A stretch of DNA of 11,169 bases, from the UHGV virus genome UHGV-0244975; one strand, written 5' to 3'. The notes below the pieces were generated by a model. That model was not told the DNA's origin. It was given only the letters and a program-made list of their open reading frames with translations, and did not search any database. This document shows, piece by piece, positions 1-10,616 of this stretch (position 1 is the stretch's first letter; every line of letters begins with the position of its first letter). The stretch is from a virus. The position numbers were made by a program, and so were the translations under genes.

Positions 1-1
1 G

Positions 2-451
2 CTGGCCTGGGGAAAACAGTACGAGAACGACGCCAGAACTCTGTTTGAATTCACTTCCGGCGTGAATGTTACTGAATCCCCGATCATCTATCGCGACGAA
101 AGTATGCGCACCGCCTGCTCTCCCGATGGTTTATGCAGTGACGGCAATGGCCTTGAGCTGAAATGCCCGTTTACCTCCCGGGATTTCATGAAGTTCCGGC
201 TCGGTGGTTTCGAGGCCATAAAGTCGGCTTACATGGCCCAGGTGCAGTACAGCATGTGGGTGACGCGAAAAGATGCCTGGTACTTTGCCAACTATGACCC
301 GCGTATGAAGCGTGAAGGACTGCATTATGTCGTGGTTGAGCGGGATGAAAAGTACATGGCGAGTTTTGACGAGATGGTGCCGGAGTTCATCGAAAAAATG
401 GACGAGGCACTGGCTGAAATTGGTTTTGTATTTGGGGAGCAATGGCGATGA
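2..451 (+). CDS. exo: Lambda-type 5'-3' exonuclease (Red-alpha, YqaJ fold), C-terminal portion; 5' end lies left of the window
   Basis: The frame is open from the window edge ([23 protein letters not shown] precedes the first ATG at 62). The translation ends ...[19 protein letters not shown], which I recognise from memory as near-identical to the phage lambda Exo C-terminus. Stop TGA at 449-451. Confidence 0.85.
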
Positions 452-606
452 CGCATCCTCACGATAATATCCGGGTAGGTGCGATCACTTTCGTCTACTC
501 CGTTACAAAGCGAGGCTGGGTATTTCCCGGCCTTTCTGTTATCCAAAATCCACTGAAAGCACAGCGGCTGGCTGAGAAGATAAATAATAAACAGGAGGAT
601 ATATGA
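448..606 (+). CDS. Small hypothetical ORF (52 aa), possibly translationally coupled between exo and the DGQHR gene
   Basis: Its ATG at 448-450 overlaps the exo stop (ATGA) and its TGA at 604-606 overlaps the ATG of the next gene (ATATGA). Translation [52 protein letters not shown]. It is below the 60-aa cut-off of the ORF track and has no obvious SD of its own. Confidence 0.3.
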
Positions 607-1667
607 GTCAGGTTGGTAATCATTCATTCGAATTTCCGGCATCGCAAGGTGTACAGGGTGGTACTGTTACACTCTTCCTTACCATACCAGGAAGATCGCT
701 GGCTCGTTTCCTCGCTTCAGATAATTACGGCCATACACTGGAACGCTCTCAGCGAGAAATTAATCCAAATCGAGTACGAAAATTTTTAAATTATCTCACT
801 AACGCAGACTCAAGAAATGAGCCTTTTATCATTCCCCCTCTCGTAGGTAACTGTGATTCGAATATAGAATTTGTACCGTTTGGCAACACAAATGTTGGTA
901 TAGCCAGAATTCCCCTCGACGCCGAAATAAAACTTTTTGATGGTCAACATCGTGCAGCTGGCATTGAGATATTTTGCCGAAGTTCCCCATCAACGCTCAT
1001 GGTTCCCATGATGCTTACAATGAATCTGCCGCTAAAAACCCGGCAGCAGTTCTTTTCGGACATAAATAACAACGTTTCTAAGCCATCAGCGACCATCAAT
1101 ATGGCGTATAACGGCCGGGATGATATTGCTCAGGGAATGATATCCTTCCTGACCCAACATACTGTATTTGCCGATATAACCGATTTTGAACACAACGTAG
1201 TGCCATTAAAAAGTAATATGTGGGTGAGTTTCAAGGCACTCACTGATGCAACGTCAAAGTTCGCCAGGAACGGCAATCAACAACTTGAAATGGGATATAT
1301 AGAATCTGTCTGGGAGGCATGGATTACACTAACTCAGATTGACTCAATCCGACATGGTGTACACCACGCTACGTACAAGCGCGATTATATTCAGTTCCAT
1401 GGAGTAATGATTAACGCTTTCGGTTTTGCGGTTCAACAGATGATGGTTAATCATTCCATCGCAGAAATAACTTCTATGATCGAAAAACTATGTGCAACTA
1501 CCAGCTCTGCAGAAAGAGAGGATTTTTTTCTGATGGATAACTGGGCGGGGATCTGCACGAAAGCCAGCCAGGAAAAACTATCTGTTATTGCCAATGTGGC
1601 AGCGCAGAAAGCAGCAGCAAACAGACTGATACAAGCTTTTACCAAAGGAAGTCTGGAATTAACTTAA
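603..1667 (+). CDS. DndB-like DGQHR-domain protein (ParB/sulfiredoxin-fold), orphan
   Basis: 354-aa ORF with a strong SD (AGGAGG at 594-599) 4 nt before the ATG. The translation contains the exact signature ...AEIKLFDGQHRAAGIEIF..., the DGQHR motif that defines the DndB family. The gene is visibly AT-rich compared with flanking exo and int. Confidence 0.85.
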   Translation: MSQVGNHSFEFPASQGVQGGTVTLFLTIPGRSLARFLASDNYGHTLERSQREINPNRVRKFLNYLTNADSRNEPFIIPPLVGNCDSNIEFVPFGNTNVGIARIPLDAEIKLFDGQHRAAGIEIFCRSSPSTLMVPMMLTMNLPLKTRQQFFSDINNNVSKPSATINMAYNGRDDIAQGMISFLTQHTVFADITDFEHNVVPLKSNMWVSFKALTDATSKFARNGNQQLEMGYIESVWEAWITLTQIDSIRHGVHHATYKRDYIQFHGVMINAFGFAVQQMMVNHSIAEITSMIEKLCATTSSAEREDFFLMDNWAGICTKASQEKLSVIANVAAQKAAANRLIQAFTKGSLELT

Positions 1668-1820
1668 TGAATCAACATTGTCTCATATCAGCATGCTGTA
1701 CGGCGTCTTTAAGGAACGGTGAGCATGAAAAACAAAATCATCATGGAGCTACAGGCTCCTTTTTTATTGTTCGCATTCACCCTCAAGCGTATTAACCAAC
1801 AATTTAGGGATTAATGGAAG

Positions 1821-2039
1821 ATGGCAGACATCATTGATTCAGCATCAGAAATTGAAGAATTACAGCGCAACACAGCAATAAAAATGCACCGCCTGAACCA
1901 CCAGGCTATATCTGCCACTCATTGTTGTGAGTGTGGCGATCCGATAGATGAACTAAGACGTCTGGCCGTTCAGGGTTGTCGGACTTGTGCAAGTTGCCAG
2001 GAGGAGATCGAACTTAAGAACAAACAATGGGGATTGTGA
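1821..2039 (+). CDS. TraR/DksA-family C4-type zinc-finger protein
   Basis: 72 aa with two Cys pairs, C-C-E-C-G ... C-R-T-C-A-S-C, spaced as in TraR/DksA C4 zinc fingers, and a size typical of phage TraR-like proteins. Confidence 0.8.
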   Translation: MADIIDSASEIEELQRNTAIKMHRLNHQAISATHCCECGDPIDELRRLAVQGCRTCASCQEEIELKNKQWGL

Positions 2040-2086
2040 TGGCCTCAAAGCAGCAAATTTCAACATCGTCCAACTGAGGTGTAAAA

Positions 2087-2326
2087 ATGTTCAGAATCAT
2101 TTTTCCTAACACCTGGTACGTCGACCACCACGGCACTCCCTGCAAAATCCTGCGTTCTACCCACAACAAAGTTCACTACATCCGAAAAGGCAGAACATGT
2201 ATCGCCAGCATGTTCCGCTTTAATCATGACTTTGAACCTGTGAGTAAAGTGGAATCAGAGCGGATAGCCGAAGAGATCGATACAGCAGAACACATTAAGA
2301 AGTTACGTGCCATACGCAGGAAATAG
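2087..2326 (+). CDS. Hypothetical protein (79 aa)
   Basis: ORF in the same orientation as the surrounding operon, with GAGG 7-8 nt upstream of the ATG. No motif recognised. Confidence 0.55.
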   Translation: MFRIIFPNTWYVDHHGTPCKILRSTHNKVHYIRKGRTCIASMFRFNHDFEPVSKVESERIAEEIDTAEHIKKLRAIRRK

Positions 2327-2465
2327 AAAAATTGATAAATTCAATACTGCATTTCTCAGCATTAAATTTATCTCTATGACCAGTCAAGAGATGTACCTGC
2401 CATGAGCTTAATATCATGTCAGATATATCGGTCACAAACTCCCTCAGCAGCTAAGAGGAGGACAA

Positions 2466-2702
2466 ATGTCTCGACTAATCACTTTACAGGACTGGGCTAA
2501 AGAAGAATTTGGGGACTTAGCACCAAGTGAGCGAGTTCTGAAAAAATACGCGCAAGGGAAAATGATGGCCCCACCCGCTATAAAAGTTGGTCGCTACTGG
2601 ATGATTGACCGAAATTCCCGTTTTGTAGGAACGCTTGCAGAACCGCAACTCCCAATAAACGCAAACCCAAAACTCCAACGGATAATCGCTGATGGCTGCT
2701 AG
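2466..2702 (+). CDS. xis: Excisionase (Xis-type DNA-binding protein)
   Basis: 78 aa, preceded by a strong SD (AAGAGGAGG). The N-terminus MSRLITLQDWAKEEFG...IKVGRYWMIDRNSRF has the pattern of lambdoid excisionases. Its 3' end overlaps the int start by 11 nt, as xis-int pairs do. Confidence 0.8.
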   Translation: MSRLITLQDWAKEEFGDLAPSERVLKKYAQGKMMAPPAIKVGRYWMIDRNSRFVGTLAEPQLPINANPKLQRIIADGC

Positions 2703-3834
2703 ACCCCGATCTCACAAAATCTCTATACCCAATTTATATTGCAAATTAGATAAGCGAACCGGAAAGGTATATTGGCAATACAAACATCCACTATCCGGTC
2801 GTTTTCATAGCTTAGGAACTGATGAGAATGAAGCAAAACAAGTTGCTACTGAAGCAAATACCATTATTGCTGAACAACGTACCAGACAAATATTAAGCGT
2901 CAATGAGCGTCTGGAAAGAATGAAAGGCAGGCGCTCAGACATTACGGTGACAGAATGGCTTGATAAATATATTTCTATCCAGGAGGACAGGCTGCAACAT
3001 AATGAACTAAGACCCAACTCCTATCGGCAAAAAGGCAAACCCATTCGTCTTTTCCGTGAGCATTGTGGAATGCAACACCTCAAGGATATTACCGCACTTG
3101 ATATTGCCGAAATAATTGATGCTGTAAAGGCTGAAGGTCATAACAGGATGGCGCAAGTCGTGAGAATGGTGTTAATCGACGTCTTCAAAGAAGCACAACA
3201 CGCAGGACATGTTCCGCCAGGATTTAACCCAGCGCAGGCAACAAAACAACCGCGAAATCGAGTAAACCGCCAAAGATTATCACTGCCCGAATGGCAGGCA
3301 ATATTTGACAGCGTAAGCAGACGGCAGCCCTATTTAAAATGCGGGATGCTACTTGCTCTTGTCACTGGACAACGTTTAGGCGATATCTGCAATTTGAAAT
3401 TCTCTGATATCTGGGACGACATGTTGCACATTACTCAGGAAAAAACCGGTTCAAAACTTGCTATTCCGCTTAACCTGAAATGCGATGCTCTGAATATTAC
3501 CCTTCGTGAAGTTATATCTCAGTGCAGGGATGCTGTTGTTAGTAAATATCTGGTCCATTACCGTCACACAACCTCTCAAGCAAACAGAGGGGACCAGGTT
3601 TCTGCGAATACTCTGACAACAGCTTTTAAAAAGGCCAGGGAAAAATGTGGCATAAAATGGGAGCAAGGAACCGCGCCCACATTTCATGAGCAGCGATCTC
3701 TGTCAGAACGGTTATATCGGGAACAGGGTCTGGATACGCAAAAGTTGTTAGGTCATAAATCCAGAAAAATGACCGACCGATACAATGATGATCGTGGTAA
3801 AGACTGGGTTATCGTAGATATGAAAACAGCATAG
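2692..3834 (+). CDS. int: Tyrosine site-specific integrase, lambda Int family
   Basis: 380 aa. The N-terminus MAARPRSHKISIPNLYCKLDKRTGK parallels the lambda Int arm-binding domain, and the C-terminus carries the catalytic signature ...TFHEQRSLSERLY...LLGHKSRKMTDRYNDDRG (His-x-x-Arg ... Tyr). It reads toward the adjacent icd fragment. Confidence 0.92.
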   Translation: MAARPRSHKISIPNLYCKLDKRTGKVYWQYKHPLSGRFHSLGTDENEAKQVATEANTIIAEQRTRQILSVNERLERMKGRRSDITVTEWLDKYISIQEDRLQHNELRPNSYRQKGKPIRLFREHCGMQHLKDITALDIAEIIDAVKAEGHNRMAQVVRMVLIDVFKEAQHAGHVPPGFNPAQATKQPRNRVNRQRLSLPEWQAIFDSVSRRQPYLKCGMLLALVTGQRLGDICNLKFSDIWDDMLHITQEKTGSKLAIPLNLKCDALNITLREVISQCRDAVVSKYLVHYRHTTSQANRGDQVSANTLTTAFKKAREKCGIKWEQGTAPTFHEQRSLSERLYREQGLDTQKLLGHKSRKMTDRYNDDRGKDWVIVDMKTA

Positions 3835-3844
3835 AAAATAGCCA

Positions 3845-3881
3845 GTTTTGGGGAAGGGTTTTGGGGAAAGTTTTGGGGAAG
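3845..3881. repeat. Three tandem direct repeats GTTTTGGGGAA(A)G just 3' of int; candidate arm-type Int-binding sites (P' arm)
   Basis: Directly visible: gttttggggaag / gttttggggaaag / gttttggggaag, head to tail, 11 nt after the int stop. Lambda attP has three tandem arm-type Int sites in the equivalent position. The binding function is inferred. Confidence 0.6.
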
Positions 3882-3901
3882 ATTTTACATCATCATAAAA
3901 C

Positions 3902-3924
3902 AACGGGCGTGTTATACGCCCGTT
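3902..3924. terminator. GC-rich hairpin, candidate bidirectional rho-independent terminator (icd fragment on -, int on +)
   Basis: Perfect 9-bp inverted repeat AACGGGCGT-gttat-ACGCCCGTT. On the - strand it is followed by GTTTTAT, 24 nt after the icd-fragment stop; on the + strand by acagTTTTT. Confidence 0.5.
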
Positions 3925-3947
3925 ACAGTTTTTAACGCATGCAGAAA

Positions 3948-4112
3948 TTACATGTTCTTGATGATCGCGTCACCAAACTCTGAACATTTCAGCAGTTTAG
4001 CGCCTTCCATCAGACGTTCGAAGTCATAGGTTACAGTCTTCGCGTTGATCGCGCCTTCCATACCTTTAACAATCAGGTCTGCGGCTTCAGTCCAACCCAT
4101 ATGGCGCAGCAT
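3948..4112 (-). pseudogene. icd: Promoterless 3'-terminal fragment of the isocitrate dehydrogenase gene (54 codons plus stop): phage-borne att-associated icd segment
   Basis: The - strand translates to [54 protein letters not shown], matching the Icd C-terminus as I recall it. Homology stops abruptly at 4112 (next upstream codons are Leu then a stop), so no upstream icd body is present. Confidence 0.85.
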
Positions 4113-4345
4113 TAGTTAGATGACTAAATCGTAACTATTTGACATAGCAACATAATTTTACTAATTTGCATATAACTCATTAGCTCTTAGCATTTCTATA
4201 ACTCATTGATTATAAACATGTGTTTTTGAGTTTTGATAACCATTTTTAGCATAAAAATAGCAGTTAACATTTGCAGAAGTTAAGATCAGAGAAAATTTTT
4301 ATCCTGTAGGGTATTACGTCTTAAATGTGACTTTAATAAACAATT

Positions 4346-5179
4346 TTATTTCTGTAATCGGTTTATATTAACGTAAAGCATCTCGATTAGTTCTTTTGCA
4401 TTTTTACTATAGTGCAATTCTCTATGACAATTCGGACAAAGGGCAACACAGTTATCTGTTGTATCAGCACCACCTGAAAACAGGGGAATTACATGATGCA
4501 CTTCCAAATATGGGTTTCCATCATTTAAATAAAACGGAGCATTTTTACCACAGTTTTCACATATACCTTTACTTTGCTGTAAAATCCAAGCTTTTACCAT
4601 CGGGTCTCGGACATAAACTTTTTGTAGTCTTTCTACCTCAACTGGTTTCCTGGAGCCATCGGGTTGACTCAACGTTTTCTTAATTAATTTACTAACCCTC
4701 ATATTCAGAAGCGATTCATCATCTGTAGGCTGTGAAAGCTCTGATAGTTCTCCACGTATTATAGACGCCCAAAAACTGTCACTATAAATACCTGGAACAT
4801 TTATCAATATTCGTTTCGTTCTATTGCCGGAAGGAATTTCCTTTCTCCCCGTATGACTAAAATAAGCCTGATAACCACACATCTTCAAGCGTATATCGCG
4901 GGGGCTATTACCAATCAAAGTAAAATATTCACCAGGATGGACTTTTCTTTCATCCAAAGAATGCATATGTTTTCTGACTGATGATGACGCCAGATATACT
5001 ACGACTTGGGATACACCAGAATCAACCAACCGTTCAATGATATAATCAAGAGCGATATTGTAATCTTTGTTTCTGTCACCCGGCCCCCACGACTCAAGGA
5101 TTAGACCATAAACACCATCCTCTTCACCTATCAAACACTCTGCTTTCAGTTCAATTCCATTATTATCAAAAACATGCAT
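4346..5179 (-). CDS. mcrA: McrA, HNH endonuclease (Type IV modification-dependent restriction)
   Basis: 277 aa. The C-terminal HNH motif is explicit: CENCGKNAPFYLNDGNPYLEVHHVIPLFSGGADTTDNCVALCPNCHRELHY. The overall sequence is recognised from memory as McrA of e14. The gene is very AT-rich. Confidence 0.9.
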   Translation of the reverse strand: MHVFDNNGIELKAECLIGEEDGVYGLILESWGPGDRNKDYNIALDYIIERLVDSGVSQVVVYLASSSVRKHMHSLDERKVHPGEYFTLIGNSPRDIRLKMCGYQAYFSHTGRKEIPSGNRTKRILINVPGIYSDSFWASIIRGELSELSQPTDDESLLNMRVSKLIKKTLSQPDGSRKPVEVERLQKVYVRDPMVKAWILQQSKGICENCGKNAPFYLNDGNPYLEVHHVIPLFSGGADTTDNCVALCPNCHRELHYSKNAKELIEMLYVNINRLQK

Positions 5180-5285
5180 AATATTAATCTTTAATCAATT
5201 TTTCACGACAATACTACTTTTATTGATAAAATTGCTACAAGTTGCTGTTGTTTTACTTTCTTTTGTACACAAAGTGTCTTTAACT

Positions 5286-5840
5286 TTATTTATCCCCTGC
5301 AGGAAACCTCTTATACAAAGTTGACACACCAACATCATAGATAATCGCCACCTTCTGGCGAGGAACTCCTGATGCAATTAATCGTCCGGCCTGTGCCCAT
5401 TGTTCTGGTGTAAGTTTGGGACGACGTCCACCAATTCGTCCCTGTGCGCGAGCAGCTTCCAGTCCAGCTTTTGTTCTTTCAACAATCAGTTCACGCTCCA
5501 TTTCAGCCAGGGCACCCATCACATGAAAGAAAAAGCGCCCCATTGGGGTACTGGTATCAATTGAATCCGTCAGACTACGAAAGTTGATGCCTCGTTCGCG
5601 CAACTCCTCCACCAGCACGACAAGATGCCGCATACTGCGCCCCAGCCGGTCCAGTTTCCAGACCACCAGCGTGTCACCTGCCGATAATGTCCTGAGCAGT
5701 TTTTTCAGTCCCGGCCTTTCGGACTTTGTACCGCTTATCTTGTCTTCAAAAATCAGCTCGCATCCTGCACAGTTCAGCGCATTACGTTGTAGATCTGTGT
5801 TCTGGTCATTTGTTGACACACGTACATAGCCAATAAGCAT
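5286..5840 (-). CDS. pin: Serine DNA invertase, Pin (Hin/Gin/Cin family)
   Basis: N-terminus MLIGYVRVSTNDQNTDLQ with the catalytic Ser in the YVRVSTNDQ resolvase motif, and a C-terminal HTH. Start chosen at the internal ATG 5838-5840, preceded by AGGGAG, giving 184 aa; the 196-aa track ORF starts 12 codons upstream. Confidence 0.9.
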   Translation of the reverse strand: MLIGYVRVSTNDQNTDLQRNALNCAGCELIFEDKISGTKSERPGLKKLLRTLSAGDTLVVWKLDRLGRSMRHLVVLVEELRERGINFRSLTDSIDTSTPMGRFFFHVMGALAEMERELIVERTKAGLEAARAQGRIGGRRPKLTPEQWAQAGRLIASGVPRQKVAIIYDVGVSTLYKRFPAGDK

Positions 5841-5866
5841 GGTAGCTCTCCCTGACAAAAGCAGGA

Positions 5867-6265
5867 ATGATGCCATTTGCTCGTTATTTCTGCATTTTCA
5901 TAAACGTTGGTTTAGGAGAAGCGGCGAAAAGGGATGTGGGCACAGGAGATAATCAGATACCGGATATGGGAGCATTCGCTTCTGGTTCGGGATGGTTCAG
6001 GCTACCAGGTGGATATATTGTTCAGTTTGGCACTTTTTCAGGAAACACGACCCGCTTTATCAGTGGACACTTCCCTATACCATTCCCTAATCAGCCGATG
6101 GTTTCAGTCAGTGTTATGTCTGATGCCGTTCAGTCAGACCCGTCGAATCCTGCCCCGCAGGTTTTGTCTGTAAATTTTGAACATATCAGTAATTCAGCGT
6201 GGCGTGTGGCAACCAGTGATATCTCACAGCAATACAGATTCAGTTATATTTCGATAGGACGGTAG
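5867..6265 (+). CDS. Alternative tail-fibre C-terminal variable segment, silent in this orientation
   Basis: The frame opens at 5846 just inside the invertible segment and has no credible own start. It encodes NVGLGE at the crossover site, matching ENLGLGE of the expressed fibre, and is followed immediately by a tfa gene. Confidence 0.7.
   Translation: MMPFARYFCIFINVGLGEAAKRDVGTGDNQIPDMGAFASGSGWFRLPGGYIVQFGTFSGNTTRFISGHFPIPFPNQPMVSVSVMSDAVQSDPSNPAPQVLSVNFEHISNSAWRVATSDISQQYRFSYISIGR
5895..5920. repeat. Inversion crossover site, hix/gix/pix-like 26-bp site proximal to pin
   Basis: ttttcataaacgTTggtttaggagaa. Its reverse complement TTCTCCTAAACC-AA-CGTTTATGAAAA resembles the hix/gix half-site pattern and is an inverted copy of the site at 7717-7742. 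Confidence 0.7.
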
Positions 6266-6267
6266 AA

Positions 6268-6708
6268 ATGCAGAAATATATTTTCAGTGCCGATAAAAAT
6301 GCGTTTTTCCCTGTGGAGCTTAAAATCGCTTATCAGGAATCCGGCGAATGGCCCGATGATGGAATCGAAATTGACGACACTGTTGCTGCCGAATTTATGA
6401 AGGAAGCACCAGAAGGAAAATACAGAGGTGTCATCGACGGAATGCCTGCATGGATTGATATTCCACCGCCAACTCATGAGGAACAAATTGCCGCAGCCGA
6501 ACTGAAAAAGCAGCAATTGATTAATCAGGTCAACGAATACATAAACAGTAAGCAATGGCCTGGTAAAGCGGCGATTGGTCGCCTGAAAGGTGAGGAACTG
6601 GTGCAATATAATTTGTGGCTGGATTATCTGGACGCACTGGAACTGGTCGATACTTCCGGTGCGCCAGATATTGAATGGCCTACGCCTCCGGCAGTTCAGG
6701 CCAGATGA
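6268..6708 (+). CDS. Tail fibre assembly protein (chaperone for the silent fibre variant)
   Basis: 146 aa. The C-terminus ...[24 protein letters not shown] resembles the conserved Tfa C-terminal region. It starts 3 nt after the silent fibre segment stop. Confidence 0.8.
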   Translation: MQKYIFSADKNAFFPVELKIAYQESGEWPDDGIEIDDTVAAEFMKEAPEGKYRGVIDGMPAWIDIPPPTHEEQIAAAELKKQQLINQVNEYINSKQWPGKAAIGRLKGEELVQYNLWLDYLDALELVDTSGAPDIEWPTPPAVQAR

Positions 6709-7276
6709 CATCCGGTGCGGTGCTGGTATCTGTTGCCGTCACCGCGTCAATATAATCCAGCACAGCGTTAAGTCGGGTGTTTTCTGGCTGCGTCAGCTTC
6801 CGCCCGGCCTGTAATTTCAGTTGAATCAGACTGATGGAAGCCATTGCAGCATCAATCAGCGACTGGCGCTGTGCTTCTGCCGCTTCTACTGCGGCGCTAT
6901 GCTGTGCCTCGGTATCCGTCACCCATTTCTCACCATCCCATTTATCGTATGGCGTTAACGGTGAAAGCGTGACATAACCGTCTTTGATGGCACCGATATA
7001 ATCCACTGTAACAGCTGCACCATTTTCTGTTGAGTAAACAGTCTCATTGCGATGGTCTTCTTCATGGCTCCATCCCTTACCCGTAAATACTGCCACTTTT
7101 CCCGGAATGTTTTCGCCCGGGTCAATACCAGTGGAACAGGCGGGCATACTTACACCAGTATTAATATATTCATCAGACCAGCCCGTATATTCATACGTTA
7201 CTGCATCATAATAAAAACAACGCATATCGCCCGGCACTGTAGCCAGTCCATTTTCATCAAAAATTGGGGTCATCAT
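6680..7276 (-). CDS. Tail fibre assembly protein (for the currently expressed fibre)
   Basis: 198 aa. The C-terminus ...[24 protein letters not shown] parallels the other Tfa. Its start overlaps the tail-fibre stop (coupled). Confidence 0.8.
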
Positions 7277-8019
7277 TTAGCCCTCACCAGAAAGTTAAAT
7301 GCAATATTTCGCGGTCTGACAGCAACAAAATTAACACCATCTCCTACTGAGTTACTGGTGTACTGAAATCGAGAGAAACCTGGCTGGTGTGCTGATATTC
7401 CATCGTAATCAGCAATCGCATGGCCGGACCCTTCTGGATAATTACCGCCAAATTGCGATAAAGATGTTGCTGCCTGCCAGCTTAATAATGCTCGCCCACT
7501 GTCCGCCCCTCGCCCATCATCCCAGATACGAATGAAATCACCGCGGGCTTCAGGTAATACCAGCGAAGGAAACACTTTTGCCAGCACAGGGTAATCAGTG
7601 GCAGAGAATTTCGCGCCGTTGAACTTCAAAAACACCATGCCGGACCAGCTTTCGATTACGGTATCTGGCATTGCGGCGGACGGCCAGAAGAACGGAACGC
7701 CAATAGCTGGAGCACCTTCTCCCAAACCAAGGTTTTCGAGAGCCGTTTTCACCGTGCCATCCGATTTGATATCGCCAAACGGATTCTTGCGGCTTAACAG
7801 CAGCGCACGAAGCGCGGTAAGCAACTGGTCGTGCCGCGCCTTCTCCAGACTGGCACCGGAGGCCTCCACCACGCTGCAAAGCTCCTCCTGCAACATGTCA
7901 AAGTAGTCATCATCCAGATCGGTGGCAGGCGTACCAGTCTGGGGATTACCACGGGTAAAACCGTTCTTACCCGCGCCGAACTTATCCTTCTGCGCGGTTT
8001 TCGTGTCTATACGATGCAT
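7273..8019 (-). CDS. Tail fibre protein (constant N-terminal part joined to the currently expressed variable C-terminal part)
   Basis: 248 aa. The crossover site lies at codons 95-100; the C-terminal portion is inside the invertible segment. Confidence 0.85.
7717..7742. repeat. Inversion crossover site, hix/gix/pix-like 26-bp site inside the tail-fibre gene at the constant/variable boundary
   Basis: TTCTCCCAAACC-AA-GGTTTTCGAGAG, in inverted orientation relative to 5895-5920. It falls on the codons for ENLGLGE in the tail fibre, and the silent segment encodes the matching NVGLGE at the other site. Confidence 0.7.
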
Positions 8020-8022
8020 GGA

Positions 8023-8607
8023 TTACTCCGGATATTTAAAAATTACGTAGGTATGCGACGGGCAGAGTTTGTTAAGCACACACTCGACAACGGTGTCGCC
8101 CCAGATACGCAGTGCGGAATCACAGGGATCGCCACATGTCATCCAGGTGGTGTTTGTGGCGGCTGGCATGTTGACCTGCCAGTAATACAGCCATTCCGGC
8201 GCATTCACCGCGTCAGTACAGGCCGATGAGCAGGTGAACGTGCTTTTGTCGTATCGCGTGATGGTAGCGTCTGGTCTGCCCAGGGCAGCAAGCTGTGCAA
8301 GATAAAAATTCTCGTTGATGCCGCCCGCCAGGTTAACCTTCGCATCCAGCCGTTGCTGACGCTGGCGAAGGGTCTGTGTCCCTGCGGGAATACATTCATC
8401 CGGCAGACCGCACAGACGCTCCCAGCGGTTTATCAGTTCAGTGGTGGTGCGCGGATCCAGCTCCCGCATCAGGGCATCCGCACGCTGATGAACGCGGGTT
8501 AATGACGGTGCCGCACCGGCAATCGACGGATCGCTGGCTGACCACGCCGGACCGGGGGGCAACAGTGCCGACAACAGACGGATGTAATCATCGTTTGTCA
8601 CGTCCAT
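8023..8607 (-). CDS. Mu gp48-like tail/baseplate protein (DUF2313, YmfQ-like)
   Basis: 194 aa, same size and position as YmfQ of e14 and gp48 of Mu, sitting between the baseplate J-like gene and the tail fibre. Its start overlaps the upstream stop. Confidence 0.75.
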
Positions 8608-9656
8608 GAAATCGTCCCCAGTACCGCCAGTTCATTTTTTGCAATGGAGATATTGTCTGCCGGTGCAAGCAACTGATGGCTGTATTCCCCGTTCGCACCG
8701 GAAATCGCCTCACTGATACGCGATACCTTCAGTTCTCCCTGCGGATAACCATCACGCAGCAGGAACGAACGCAACTCCGCGGTGATGGCAGCCCGTATTT
8801 CCGGTGTGTCCGGCGTCACGCGGATATGAAAATCCACTTTATGCGCCACCGGCCTGAATACATACAAATCAGAGCCTGCCACCGGGGCCAGTGGCTCAAT
8901 GTGTTGTCTTGCCGCCGTTTCCGTTGATTCTTCCGGAATGGGATTAATCAGGTCACTGCTGGCAATCATCACACCGACAGTCCCCGTTCCCATCCAGTGG
9001 CGGTATGTCCATGCACGGGTAATGCCTGGCACTTCTTTAGCCCAGACGACATAGTCCCCGTCAGCCCCGCCCTGAGGCGTCCAGTAATACCGCTCAATGA
9101 CGCGGGCGCGCCACGTTTCCAGCTCTTCAGTATCAAATCCGCCTGTAAGGGTGTCAGCCACACCGGAAGACGGCAGACCATTCACCGGCGTGACCAGGAT
9201 TAATGCCGTACCGTCGTCAGCGTTACCGACCGCACCTGCACTTGAGCAGGCGATCGGCACGCGCAGGACACCACCGGAGCTGGTTGCATCGTCAGTTGTC
9301 GTGTACTGCACCAGGTCATCGCGCTGAATAGCACTCCCGGCGGTCACCTTCAGGCCATCGCTGACACCTTCCCAGCGCATATACCCGCTGGCAGCCGTGG
9401 CCCCCTTGCGCGGACACCGTTTCATCGCAGCATGTCGCGCCAGCCAGGACTCATCGCACAGGTCAGGCAGCATGTTCATTGCCAGATAATCGATGTAACC
9501 GTAAACCGTATGCAGCGCCGCCGCATACACCTTTGCCCGCACGTCTTCATCCATGCGCCGGAGCGTGTCGCTGACGTCCAGCCTGGCGAATAAATCGTTA
9601 CGGAGCATACTGATATTTTCTGCCAGCGTCGGGCGCTGAAATTCACTGTCCGCCAT
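8598..9656 (-). CDS. Baseplate J-like protein (Mu gp47-like)
   Basis: 352 aa. Size, position and overlapping start/stop coupling fit baseplate J-family proteins of Mu-type tails. Confidence 0.8.
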
Positions 9657-10071
9657 GCGTTATCGCACTCCACAGATCATCAAAAGAAATCATTACCGGT
9701 CCGTCACGACGCCAGAGGGTGATACTGTTACTCAGTTCATTAATCCCGGTGCGGCGGATATCCAGATCAATACGGGACACCACGCCGTCATCAATCATCC
9801 ATTGCAGGCATTCGCGGATATACCCCCTTACCGTCTGCACCAGCTGATTGGTCAGTTTGCTGCGCTGAAGCAGCCACAGTCGGGAGCCGTAACGGTCATT
9901 CTGTACCGCAGGCCAGGTATCCCCCCACCATCCCATCGGGACATCGGCGTTGTCATCAGGCTCCGCCCGCCGCCAGGTAAACAGGGAAATCACCACGGCG
10001 CGGGTCAGCGGATCCAGCTGTGCGCTGGCGCAGGTGCGTTTACCGTTCACCGTCAGCCACAGTTCCATCAT
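9643..10071 (-). CDS. Mu gp46-like baseplate protein (GPW/gp25-like)
   Basis: 142 aa, between the V-like and J-like genes, with ATGA-type overlap to its upstream neighbour. Confidence 0.7.
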   Translation of the reverse strand: MMELWLTVNGKRTCASAQLDPLTRAVVISLFTWRRAEPDDNADVPMGWWGDTWPAVQNDRYGSRLWLLQRSKLTNQLVQTVRGYIRECLQWMIDDGVVSRIDLDIRRTGINELSNSITLWRRDGPVMISFDDLWSAITHGGQ

Positions 10072-10616
10072 GCCTCCATCGCTTTATCAGGTTTGTCGGT
10101 GTTACTGCCCTGACCGTTCTCTCTGTGACGATGCCCGTTATAGGCAAGCCGCATCGCTGACATGGTGGTACCGCCGGAGTCGCACAGGTCTTTCACCTGT
10201 CCGGTCACTTCCAGGTCCATTTCAAAACGTGCTCTGGGCGCATTGCGAAACGTGATCGTTTTACCTGCACCGTCCACCACGATCCCCTCCCGGGTCAGCG
10301 TCACAGACTGCCCCTGATCGTCATAGACAGCCACCTCACCCGTCTGCAGCCCTTTCAGGCGGTAGCGCCGGTCCGACACCGTAACAACCACCGCATGAGA
10401 ACGGTCGCCATCCGGAAACAACACCACCGCTTCCGCACCGCTGTTTGCCCTTGCGGTAAAACCGTAGGGTTCAAGATGTTCAACCCCGGCTTTGGGTTCA
10501 CCGGCAATCAGGGACACATCCACGGTCTGACATTTCGTGGCGGCACTGATGCTTTTCACCACTGCCCGCCCAATCAGCCCGAGGAGTTGTCGCTGCATGG
10601 CTTCAATCGTCCTCAT
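10068..10616 (-). CDS. Baseplate assembly protein V-like (Mu gp45-like spike)
   Basis: 182 aa, at the conserved position upstream of the gp46-like and J-like genes. Start codon 10614-10616 overlaps the upstream stop 10616-10618. Confidence 0.75.
   Translation of the reverse strand: MRTIEAMQRQLLGLIGRAVVKSISAATKCQTVDVSLIAGEPKAGVEHLEPYGFTARANSGAEAVVLFPDGDRSHAVVVTVSDRRYRLKGLQTGEVAVYDDQGQSVTLTREGIVVDGAGKTITFRNAPRARFEMDLEVTGQVKDLCDSGGTTMSAMRLAYNGHRHRENGQGSNTDKPDKAMEA

Follow-up and report, generated by a model that had tools for sequence, protein, structure and literature searches.

The stretch of DNA analysed here (the window, 11,169 nucleotides of the virus genome UHGV-0244975) carries the gene for a small DNA invertase close to two alternative tail-fibre C-terminal parts, of which one is joined to a fibre N-terminus and the other is not. 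The locus raises the question whether the DNA between the invertase gene and the constant part of the fibre is an invertible segment, where it would be cut, which fibre its present orientation encodes and which function the alternative may have. An initial annotation, made from the sequence, had read the locus as a Pin-controlled switch of tail fibres. We conclude with high confidence that the window carries the invertible P segment of an e14-type prophage with an SfV/Mu-like tail, located at icd, in which Pin would flip 1,824 bp.

Genomic setting of the locus

The baseplate genes of the window are read on the minus strand and are of the Mu/SfV type; they are followed by the tail fibre and by a 198-amino acid chaperone. 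The genes surrounding the segment are the following:

10068-10616, minus strand: baseplate V-like gene
9643-10071, minus strand: gp46-like gene
8598-9656, minus strand: Baseplate_J gene, intact, 352 amino acids
8023-8607, minus strand: Mu gp48/YmfQ-like gene, the upstream neighbour of the fibre
5286-5840, minus strand: pin, 184-amino acid small serine DNA invertase of the Hin/Gin/Cin/Pin subfamily (Pfam Resolvase 1.5e-51, HTH_7 1.7e-13)
4346-5179: HNH protein in the position of mcrA, adjoining pin
3948-4112, minus strand: 54-amino acid ORF with the length and position of the 165-bp icdC pseudogene of K-12

Prophages of the e14 type are found in icd, whose 3' end is duplicated, and their right end is composed of the fibre module, pin, mcrA and the icd fragment. 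The right end in the window has this composition: positions 3895-5921 (icd fragment, mcrA and pin) align to icdC-mcrA-pinE of K-12 e14 at 97.1% identity and positions 7712-9385 align to e14 at 96.8%. The MG1655 annotation of the "cryptic prophage e14" lists a matching gene order, which is ymfQ, ycfK/stfP, tfaP, tfaE, stfE, pinE, mcrA and icdC. Beyond the icd fragment the window has a second prophage, in distinction to K-12 e14. A search of complete E. coli genomes for coverage of the whole window returned none.

The Pin invertase and its putative enhancer

The Din invertases are proteins of about 180-195 amino acids with an N-terminal resolvase catalytic domain, whose active serine lies near residue 9-10, and a helix-turn-helix at the C-terminus. 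Pin of the window has the Resolvase and HTH_7 domains and carries Ser9, which is invariant in this protein, Gin, Cin and PinE. Its identity is 98% to K-12 PinE, 83% to P1 Cin and 78% to Mu Gin, and the closest solved structure is that of Mu Gin (3uj3, E = 3.6e-94). A longer ORF call for the same gene (5286-5876) merely reflects an earlier in-frame ATG. The gene is separated from the left crossover site, described below, by 54 bp.

In the Gin, Cin and Pin systems the 5' part of the invertase gene contains a recombinational enhancer that acts in cis and depends on Fis. The candidate in the window is defined by its position:

5751-5822, no strand assigned: putative Fis-binding "sis" element (recombinational enhancer), located in the 5' end of pin

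This region corresponds to nt 19-90 of cin, annotated in the P1 record as the enhancer of Cin inversion, and one match to the Fis consensus is common to pin, gin and cin at nt 71-85. DNA identity to gin and cin was 75-76% in the enhancer region and 69-72% in the remaining gene, and was judged not to be higher than in the rest. Nor was conservation of synonymous sites higher, with 10/22 and 9/20 codons in the enhancer region and 53/115 and 55/125 in the remaining gene. Because conservation does not exceed that of the rest of pin, either in DNA or in synonymous codons, the enhancer is a positional assignment, and it is the weakest link of the mechanism proposed below.

The crossover sites

Systems of the Din family recombine two inverted 26-bp sites, in which 12-bp half-sites form an imperfect dyad around a 2-bp core, the cores of both sites being identical. 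The corresponding features of the window are:

5895-5920, minus strand: left crossover site (pixR equivalent), core TT/AA at 5907-5908, outer half-site (pin side) 5895-5906, inner half-site 5909-5920
7717-7742, plus strand: right crossover site (pixL equivalent), core AA at 7729-7730, inner half-site 7717-7728, outer half-site (constant side) 7731-7742
5907-7730, no strand assigned: invertible P segment, 1,824 bp including both core dinucleotides

The right site reads TTCTCCCAAACC-AA-GGTTTTCGAGAG on the plus strand, and the left site reads TTCTCCTAAACC-AA-CGTTTATGAAAA on the minus strand. The two are in inverted orientation, have AA in both cores and are identical at 20 of 26 positions, with an internal dyad symmetry of 9/12 in each. 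An independent search for repeats also found the pair, listing 5902-5921 and 7716-7735 as an inverted repeat of 20 nt with 90% complementarity. The motif TTCTCCYAAACCAASGTTT, with up to two mismatches, occurs at only two positions of the window, which are the two sites, and in none of 200 dinucleotide-preserving shuffles. Repeat search and shuffles thus agree with the initial annotation, which had placed an inverted pair of 26-bp sites at exactly these positions.

In the published table of Din-family sites (PMC3241671) pixL is TTCTCCCAAACC AA GGTTTTCGAGAG and pixR is TTCTCCCAAACC AA CGTTTATGAAAA. The right site is identical to published pixL (26/26), and the left site departs from published pixR at a single position (25/26), having T for C at position 7; T is found there also in functional cix and in several mix sites (PMC3241671). 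Identity is 20/26 to hixL and to cix and 18/26 to gix. Judged by their sequence, the two 26-bp sites are the published pixL and pixR. The hix/gix-like character suggested earlier is therefore borne out by alignment with the published pix, hix, cix and gix sites, and because of these matches the objection foreseen at the time, that the sites might be unrelated to the Hin family, fails.

The homology of the window to K-12 e14 stops at 5921, beside the left site, and resumes at 7712, close to the right site. As the crossover dinucleotides are 5907-5908 and 7729-7730, the DNA flipped amounts to 1,824 bp, while 1,796 bp lie between the two 26-bp sites. Further crossover sites, as would be found in a p15B-like multiple inversion system, were sought in the window, which has just the two full sites. 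A third half-site-like match, at 3868, lies in a triple direct repeat by the integrase of the second prophage and was discarded as unrelated. A perfect 13-nt inverted repeat (5885-5897 and 6266-6278) is not shared by K-12, which differs in one base, and is probably due to chance.

Fibre and chaperone cassettes

Five coding features, in part inside and in part outside the segment, make up the fibre module:

7731-8019, minus strand: constant N-terminal fibre part, ending ...TALENL, with its ATG at 8019 behind a GGAG ribosome-binding site
7273-7728, minus strand: joined variable fibre C-terminal part, StfE-like, 41% identical to the K-12 stfE product
6680-7276, minus strand: tail-fibre assembly chaperone, 198 amino acids, TfaE-like, co-oriented with the joined fibre (Caudo_TAP 1.6e-27; 62.5% identical to K-12 TfaE)
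6268-6708, plus strand: tail-fibre assembly chaperone, 146 amino acids, TfaP-like, belonging to the alternative fibre part (Caudo_TAP 9.3e-34; 56% identical to K-12 TfaP)
5909-6265, plus strand: alternative fibre C-terminal part with a gp53-like domain (Pfam Gp53-like_C 2.4e-09), at present unjoined to the fibre N-terminus

The constant part shares 98% identity with the first 103 residues of SfV orf21, and by eye it is near-identical to the N-terminus of K-12 StfP. Together with the StfE-like variable part it forms one continuous fibre ORF of 248 amino acids (7273-8019, minus strand), which reads across the right site, and the start of the 198-amino acid chaperone overlaps the fibre stop codon (ATGA at 7273-7276). 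The inner half-sites encode the conserved residues G-L-G-E. The Leu codon of ENL contains the core dinucleotide, so that the constant part ends in ...ENL and GLGE belongs to each variable part. The initial annotation had located the right site at the ENLGLGE joint between fibre and variable part and had named 7273-8019 as the variant of the present orientation; the single intact ORF crossing this site is in accordance with both.

The alternative fibre part shares 37% identity with the variable region of the short tail fibre of SfV. It is contained in an ORF of 132 amino acids (5867-6265, plus strand), which starts at an in-frame ATG at 5867, outside the segment, and reads FINVGLGEAAKRD across the left site, as expected from the earlier placement of this site on NVGLGE codons of the alternative segment beside pin. 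The description of this segment as promoterless goes further than the observations. A scan of 5650-8150 for promoters and terminators found nothing above shuffle expectation, with no promoter-like match upstream of pin or of the ORF at 5867; however, the segment has an ATG at 5867 which opens the 132-amino acid ORF, and this ORF is annotated by RefSeq in other genomes.

When 5907-7730 is flipped in silico the reading frame is kept, and the product is a fibre of 215 amino acids with the gp53-like tip, followed by the 146-amino acid chaperone. Residues 1-100 are common to the 248- and 215-amino acid fibres. The constant N-terminus is therefore in frame with either C-terminus, each of which is then followed by its own Caudo_TAP chaperone. 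The inversion of about 1.8 kb proposed at the outset, swapping the fibre C-terminus and its chaperone, is in this way reproduced in silico as a change from the 248/198 to the 215/146 pair of proteins.

Both orientations in natural genomes

In order to follow the orientation of the segment in nature we used 600-bp junction queries on 5,426 complete E. coli genomes, counting a junction as contiguous at a coverage of at least 80%. The pin-side junction was found in its present form in 115 genomes and in the form inverted in silico in 229. For the region 5700-7950 the present orientation was found in 61 genomes and the inverted one in 52.

Alignment to MG1655 places the flanks of the segment on one strand and its interior (6553-6961, 89.7% identity) on the opposite strand. 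The chaperone next to the constant part is TfaE-like and the one next to pin is TfaP-like, whereas in MG1655 the order is the reverse. As the interior aligns oppositely and the order of the chaperones is reversed, the window is inverted relative to MG1655. The E. coli loci L004-L006 also have an interior which, compared to the window, is opposite in orientation to the flanks.

Strain EcE.CRE.COL (L013), which has an intact pinE, carries the window sequence 5902-7314 reverse-complemented, at 98.8% identity, between co-linear flanks. The strain has an annotated fibre of 215 amino acids, identical to the predicted fusion except for one residue. The T/C difference in the inner half-site is found here at the right-hand site, so that it moves with the gp53-like cassette, as recombination at the core would produce. 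A second comparison concerns MSB1_6C (L007) and WP3-W18-ESBL-08 (L008), in which the prophage lies by yfhH. The two strains have 100% identity in flanks of 3,222 and 3,079 bp, while the interior of one is the exact 1,834-bp reverse complement of the other with 2 mismatches, and the overlap between the alignments corresponds to the 20-bp repeats.

Inversion with breakpoints at the sites is thus documented for homologous loci. The initial annotation had suggested looking for assemblies in both orientations, and these were found in related E. coli genomes with breakpoints in the repeats; the evidence consists of assemblies of homologous loci. For K-12, clonal cultures in which both orientations coexist were reported in 2014 (PMC4272514), and the inversion is reported to be carried out by PinE and PinQ (Kirigo et al. 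2025, PMC12529663).

Comparison with known invertible segments

The closest relative of the locus is the P segment of K-12 e14 with PinE. The two share the icd fragment-mcrA-pin neighbourhood at 97% DNA identity, a Pin protein 98% identical, an identical pixL, a pixR matching at 25/26, a segment of about 1.8 kb and the layout, which is a constant fibre part, two cassettes of variable part plus chaperone, and then pin. In contrast to K-12, the segment of the window is opposite to the MG1655 reference orientation and its variable parts are other alleles, with 41% identity to StfE and a tip without detectable similarity to that of StfP. The chaperones are 56-62% identical (56% for TfaP, 62.5% for TfaE), and baseplate J is intact in the window and a pseudogene in K-12.

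The G segment of Mu with Gin has the same order of genes, i.e. gp47, gp48, the constant part of S, Sv-U and U'-Sv', then the invertase. As in the window, the invertase is transcribed away from the segment and a crossover site lies just upstream of its gene; the enzymes are 78% identical and the 26-bp sites belong to one family (18/26 to gix). Mu differs in the size of its segment (3 kb) and of its fibres (about 500 amino acids), in the core, which is GA in Mu and AA in the window, and in the constant part of S, of about 170 amino acids against about 96 in the window. For the C segment of P1 with Cin, the resemblance lies in the invertase (83%), in cix with its AA core (20/26) and in the enhancer, annotated within the first 90 nt of cin at a position conserved in pin. 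Unlike pin, cin points towards the segment, its 3' end is overlapped by cixL and the C segment has 4.2 kb. The Min system of p15B has six sites and shuffles several cassettes, compared to the two sites of the window.

The SfV-family phages of Shigella flexneri (SfV, SfII, SfIV and SfI) are about 98% identical to the window in their baseplate genes and in the constant first 103 residues of the short tail fibre, and the tip of the SfV fibre has a relative in the alternative, gp53-like cassette. In distinction to the window they have a single fibre and a single chaperone and carry neither invertase nor pix sites. Their homology to the window begins exactly at pixL (window position 7716).

Proposed mechanism

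Dimers of Pin, encoded just outside the segment, would bind the two 26-bp pix sites, which according to the known mechanism of the Hin/Gin family would be brought together with a Fis-bound enhancer. The four strands would then be cut with a 2-bp stagger at the AA/TT cores, 5907-5908 and 7729-7730, and rotation of the subunits and religation would leave the 1,824-bp segment flipped. The constant fibre part, from 8019 down to 7731, lies outside the segment and would be transcribed with the baseplate genes. The segment itself consists of two back-to-back cassettes, each encoding a fibre C-terminus and its own assembly chaperone, so that the present orientation is predicted to yield the 248-amino acid StfE-type fibre with the 198-amino acid chaperone and the inverted one the 215-amino acid fibre with the gp53-like tip and the 146-amino acid chaperone.

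This work observed an intact invertase, sites identifiable as pixL and pixR, an in-frame alternative product and both orientations in natural genomes, with breakpoints in the sites. Going by its sequence, Pin is probably active in the source strain, and by analogy it would need Fis and the enhancer inside pin. As in Mu and P1, the two fibres may recognise different receptors, and inversion would then change the host range. The near-identical constant part is carried by the single short fibre of SfV-family phages, which supports the view of fibres as small as these as functional.

Alternative explanations

The repeat could in principle be a mere conserved coding joint for GLGE, with inversions arising by occasional homologous recombination, and the inner half-sites do encode G-L-G-E. 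We give this explanation almost no credence. The similarity reaches into the outer half-sites, which are non-homologous, each site has a dyad of the Hin-family type (9/12), the sites match experimentally defined pix sites (pixL at 26/26, pixR at 25/26), and a dedicated invertase lies 54 bp away. In addition, a repeat of 20 bp is far below the length of an efficient RecA substrate, and pinE and pinE pinQ mutants of K-12 are reported to be locked in one orientation (PMC12529663). A different possibility is that the switch is a fossil, in which sites and pin were kept while inversion ceased, leaving the segment frozen in the StfE-type orientation. The defective nature of the e14 prophage in K-12, the truncated invertase genes at many related loci and the one substitution of the left site relative to published pixR would fit such a history. 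We regard it nevertheless as very improbable: pin has its full length and its product is 98% identical to the K-12 enzyme, which is active, AA is present in both cores, and the T at position 7 is shared with functional cix and mix sites and sits in EcE.CRE.COL in the opposite site after inversion. Even the loci with a truncated local invertase (L007 and L008) are found in both orientations, and other Pin-type enzymes are reported to be active in trans (PMC12529663).

It is less easy to separate the tail-fibre switch from a reading in which the same machinery serves mainly, as its selected function, in host defence, with the pin-side ORF 5867-6265 acting as a recombinase-gated anti-phage decoy. 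In K-12 the inverted state is reported to create StfE2, composed of the stfE leader and the StfP variable part, whose gp53-like domain spans residues 47-125 and which reportedly blocks adsorption of T2 and of other phages; individual proteins including StfE2 were tested by production from plasmids (PMC12529663). ORF 5867-6265, with a 17-residue leader and a gp53-like tip, occupies the place that StfE2 has in K-12, shares its leader (MMPFARYFCIFINVGLGE in the window and MPFACYFFIFINVGLGE in K-12) and contains a Gp53-like_C domain, and mcrA, also a defence gene, adjoins pin. On the other hand, the gp53-like part has no similarity detectable by BLAST to the StfP variable part of K-12, and because the tips lack detectable similarity any blocking specificity would differ from that of K-12. 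The absence of a promoter-like site upstream of 5867 and the plasmid-borne production on which the published StfE2 effect rests (PMC12529663) also speak against this reading, as does the visible tail module, which is intact (baseplate J of 352 amino acids, a pseudogene in K-12) and thus fits a working phage using the switch for its own fibres. Defence as the main selected function therefore appears unlikely to us; the functions in defence and in host range are compatible and neither excludes the other. It is a more doubtful proposition still that the present allele expresses the 132-amino acid leader plus gp53-like protein as an StfE2-like receptor-masking decoy, whose tip, and with it the range of phages blocked, would differ from those of K-12, and that the mosaic cassettes of E. 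coli represent a defence repertoire. If this decoy reading were true, the mosaic cassettes would be a diversified, recombinase-gated defence repertoire and not host-range modules alone.

Significance of the locus

The preferred reading of the window is an invertible P segment switching tail fibres under the control of Pin, and the tail-fibre inversion switch of e14 is already known, textbook biology; the P-segment system of e14 was described in 1985 (Plasterk & van de Putte 1985, EMBO J 4:237, as cited in PMC4272514) and has been taken up repeatedly since then. The finding is mainly a positive control, in that the sites, the logic of the reading frames and the current orientation were read correctly from raw sequence. 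Its biological addition is small and consists of one more combination of e14-type P-segment alleles, opposite in orientation to MG1655 and with a tail module which is apparently more intact than that of K-12. The survey of genomes adds that natural genomes commonly carry either orientation and that a boundary between exchanged fibre modules coincides with the crossover site.

A second prophage at icd

Positions 1-4112 of the window form the end of a second, lambdoid prophage, which directly adjoins the e14-type element at a fragment of the icd gene; the two prophages are therefore arranged in tandem at icd.

Features of the second prophage and of its meeting point with the e14-type element
62-451: exonuclease fragment
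603-1667: DndB/DGQHR protein
2466-2702: excisionase-like gene
2692-3834: lambda-type integrase
3845-3855, 3858-3868 and 3870-3880, minus strand: TTCCCCAAAAC in three direct copies, spacing 12-13 bp
3948-4112, minus strand: icd 3' fragment (165 bp), where the two elements meet

The three copies of TTCCCCAAAAC follow the stop codon of the integrase gene and precede the icd fragment; they may be arm-type sites to which the integrase of the second prophage binds. Window 1-4112 has a match of about 98.8% in several genomes. No complete E. coli genome covered at least 80% of window 1-5200, and a pattern search of the genome contigs collection gave no match to the exact tandem-prophage junction pattern.

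Inversion and the flank of the left site

In two E. coli strains, MSB1_6C (L007) and WP3-W18-ESBL-08 (L008), the homologous segment (3203-5036 in each locus) is exactly inverted in one with respect to the other, although both retain only 267 bp of the adjoining, truncated invertase gene. The flip was made either by an invertase from another locus acting in trans or before the truncation occurred; PinQ and PinR have been reported as invertases acting in trans (PMC12529663).

A perfect 13-nt inverted repeat, TATTTCTGCATTT / AAATGCAGAAATA (5885-5897 and 6266-6278), has one arm in the flank of the left site that faces pin and the other around the start codon of the 146-aa chaperone gene. The repeat is found in several related loci, with one base different in K-12, and is probably either fortuitous or left over from a previous rearrangement.

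Tail fibre and baseplate genes

RefSeq labels the 248-aa tail fibre of one related E. coli locus (L002, 6545-7291, NZ_CP070071.1) as an integrase (WP_204608482.1), and the surrounding DNA stretch is 99.9% identical to the window. A fibre fragment in a further genome (L006, 4297-4758) is likewise labelled integrase, and both labels are evident mis-annotations.

8598-9656, minus strand: baseplate J-like gene, intact 352-aa ORF

Its counterpart in e14 of K-12, jayE, is annotated as a pseudogene, whereas the window copy is intact, so that decay may have gone less far in the window prophage than in the K-12 element.

In the Shigella flexneri phages SfV, SfII, SfIV and SfI, which unlike the window are without an invertase, homology of about 98% starts exactly at pixL (window 7716) and spans the baseplate genes. 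The crossover site thus falls on a module boundary of the mosaic, between one fibre tip and another.
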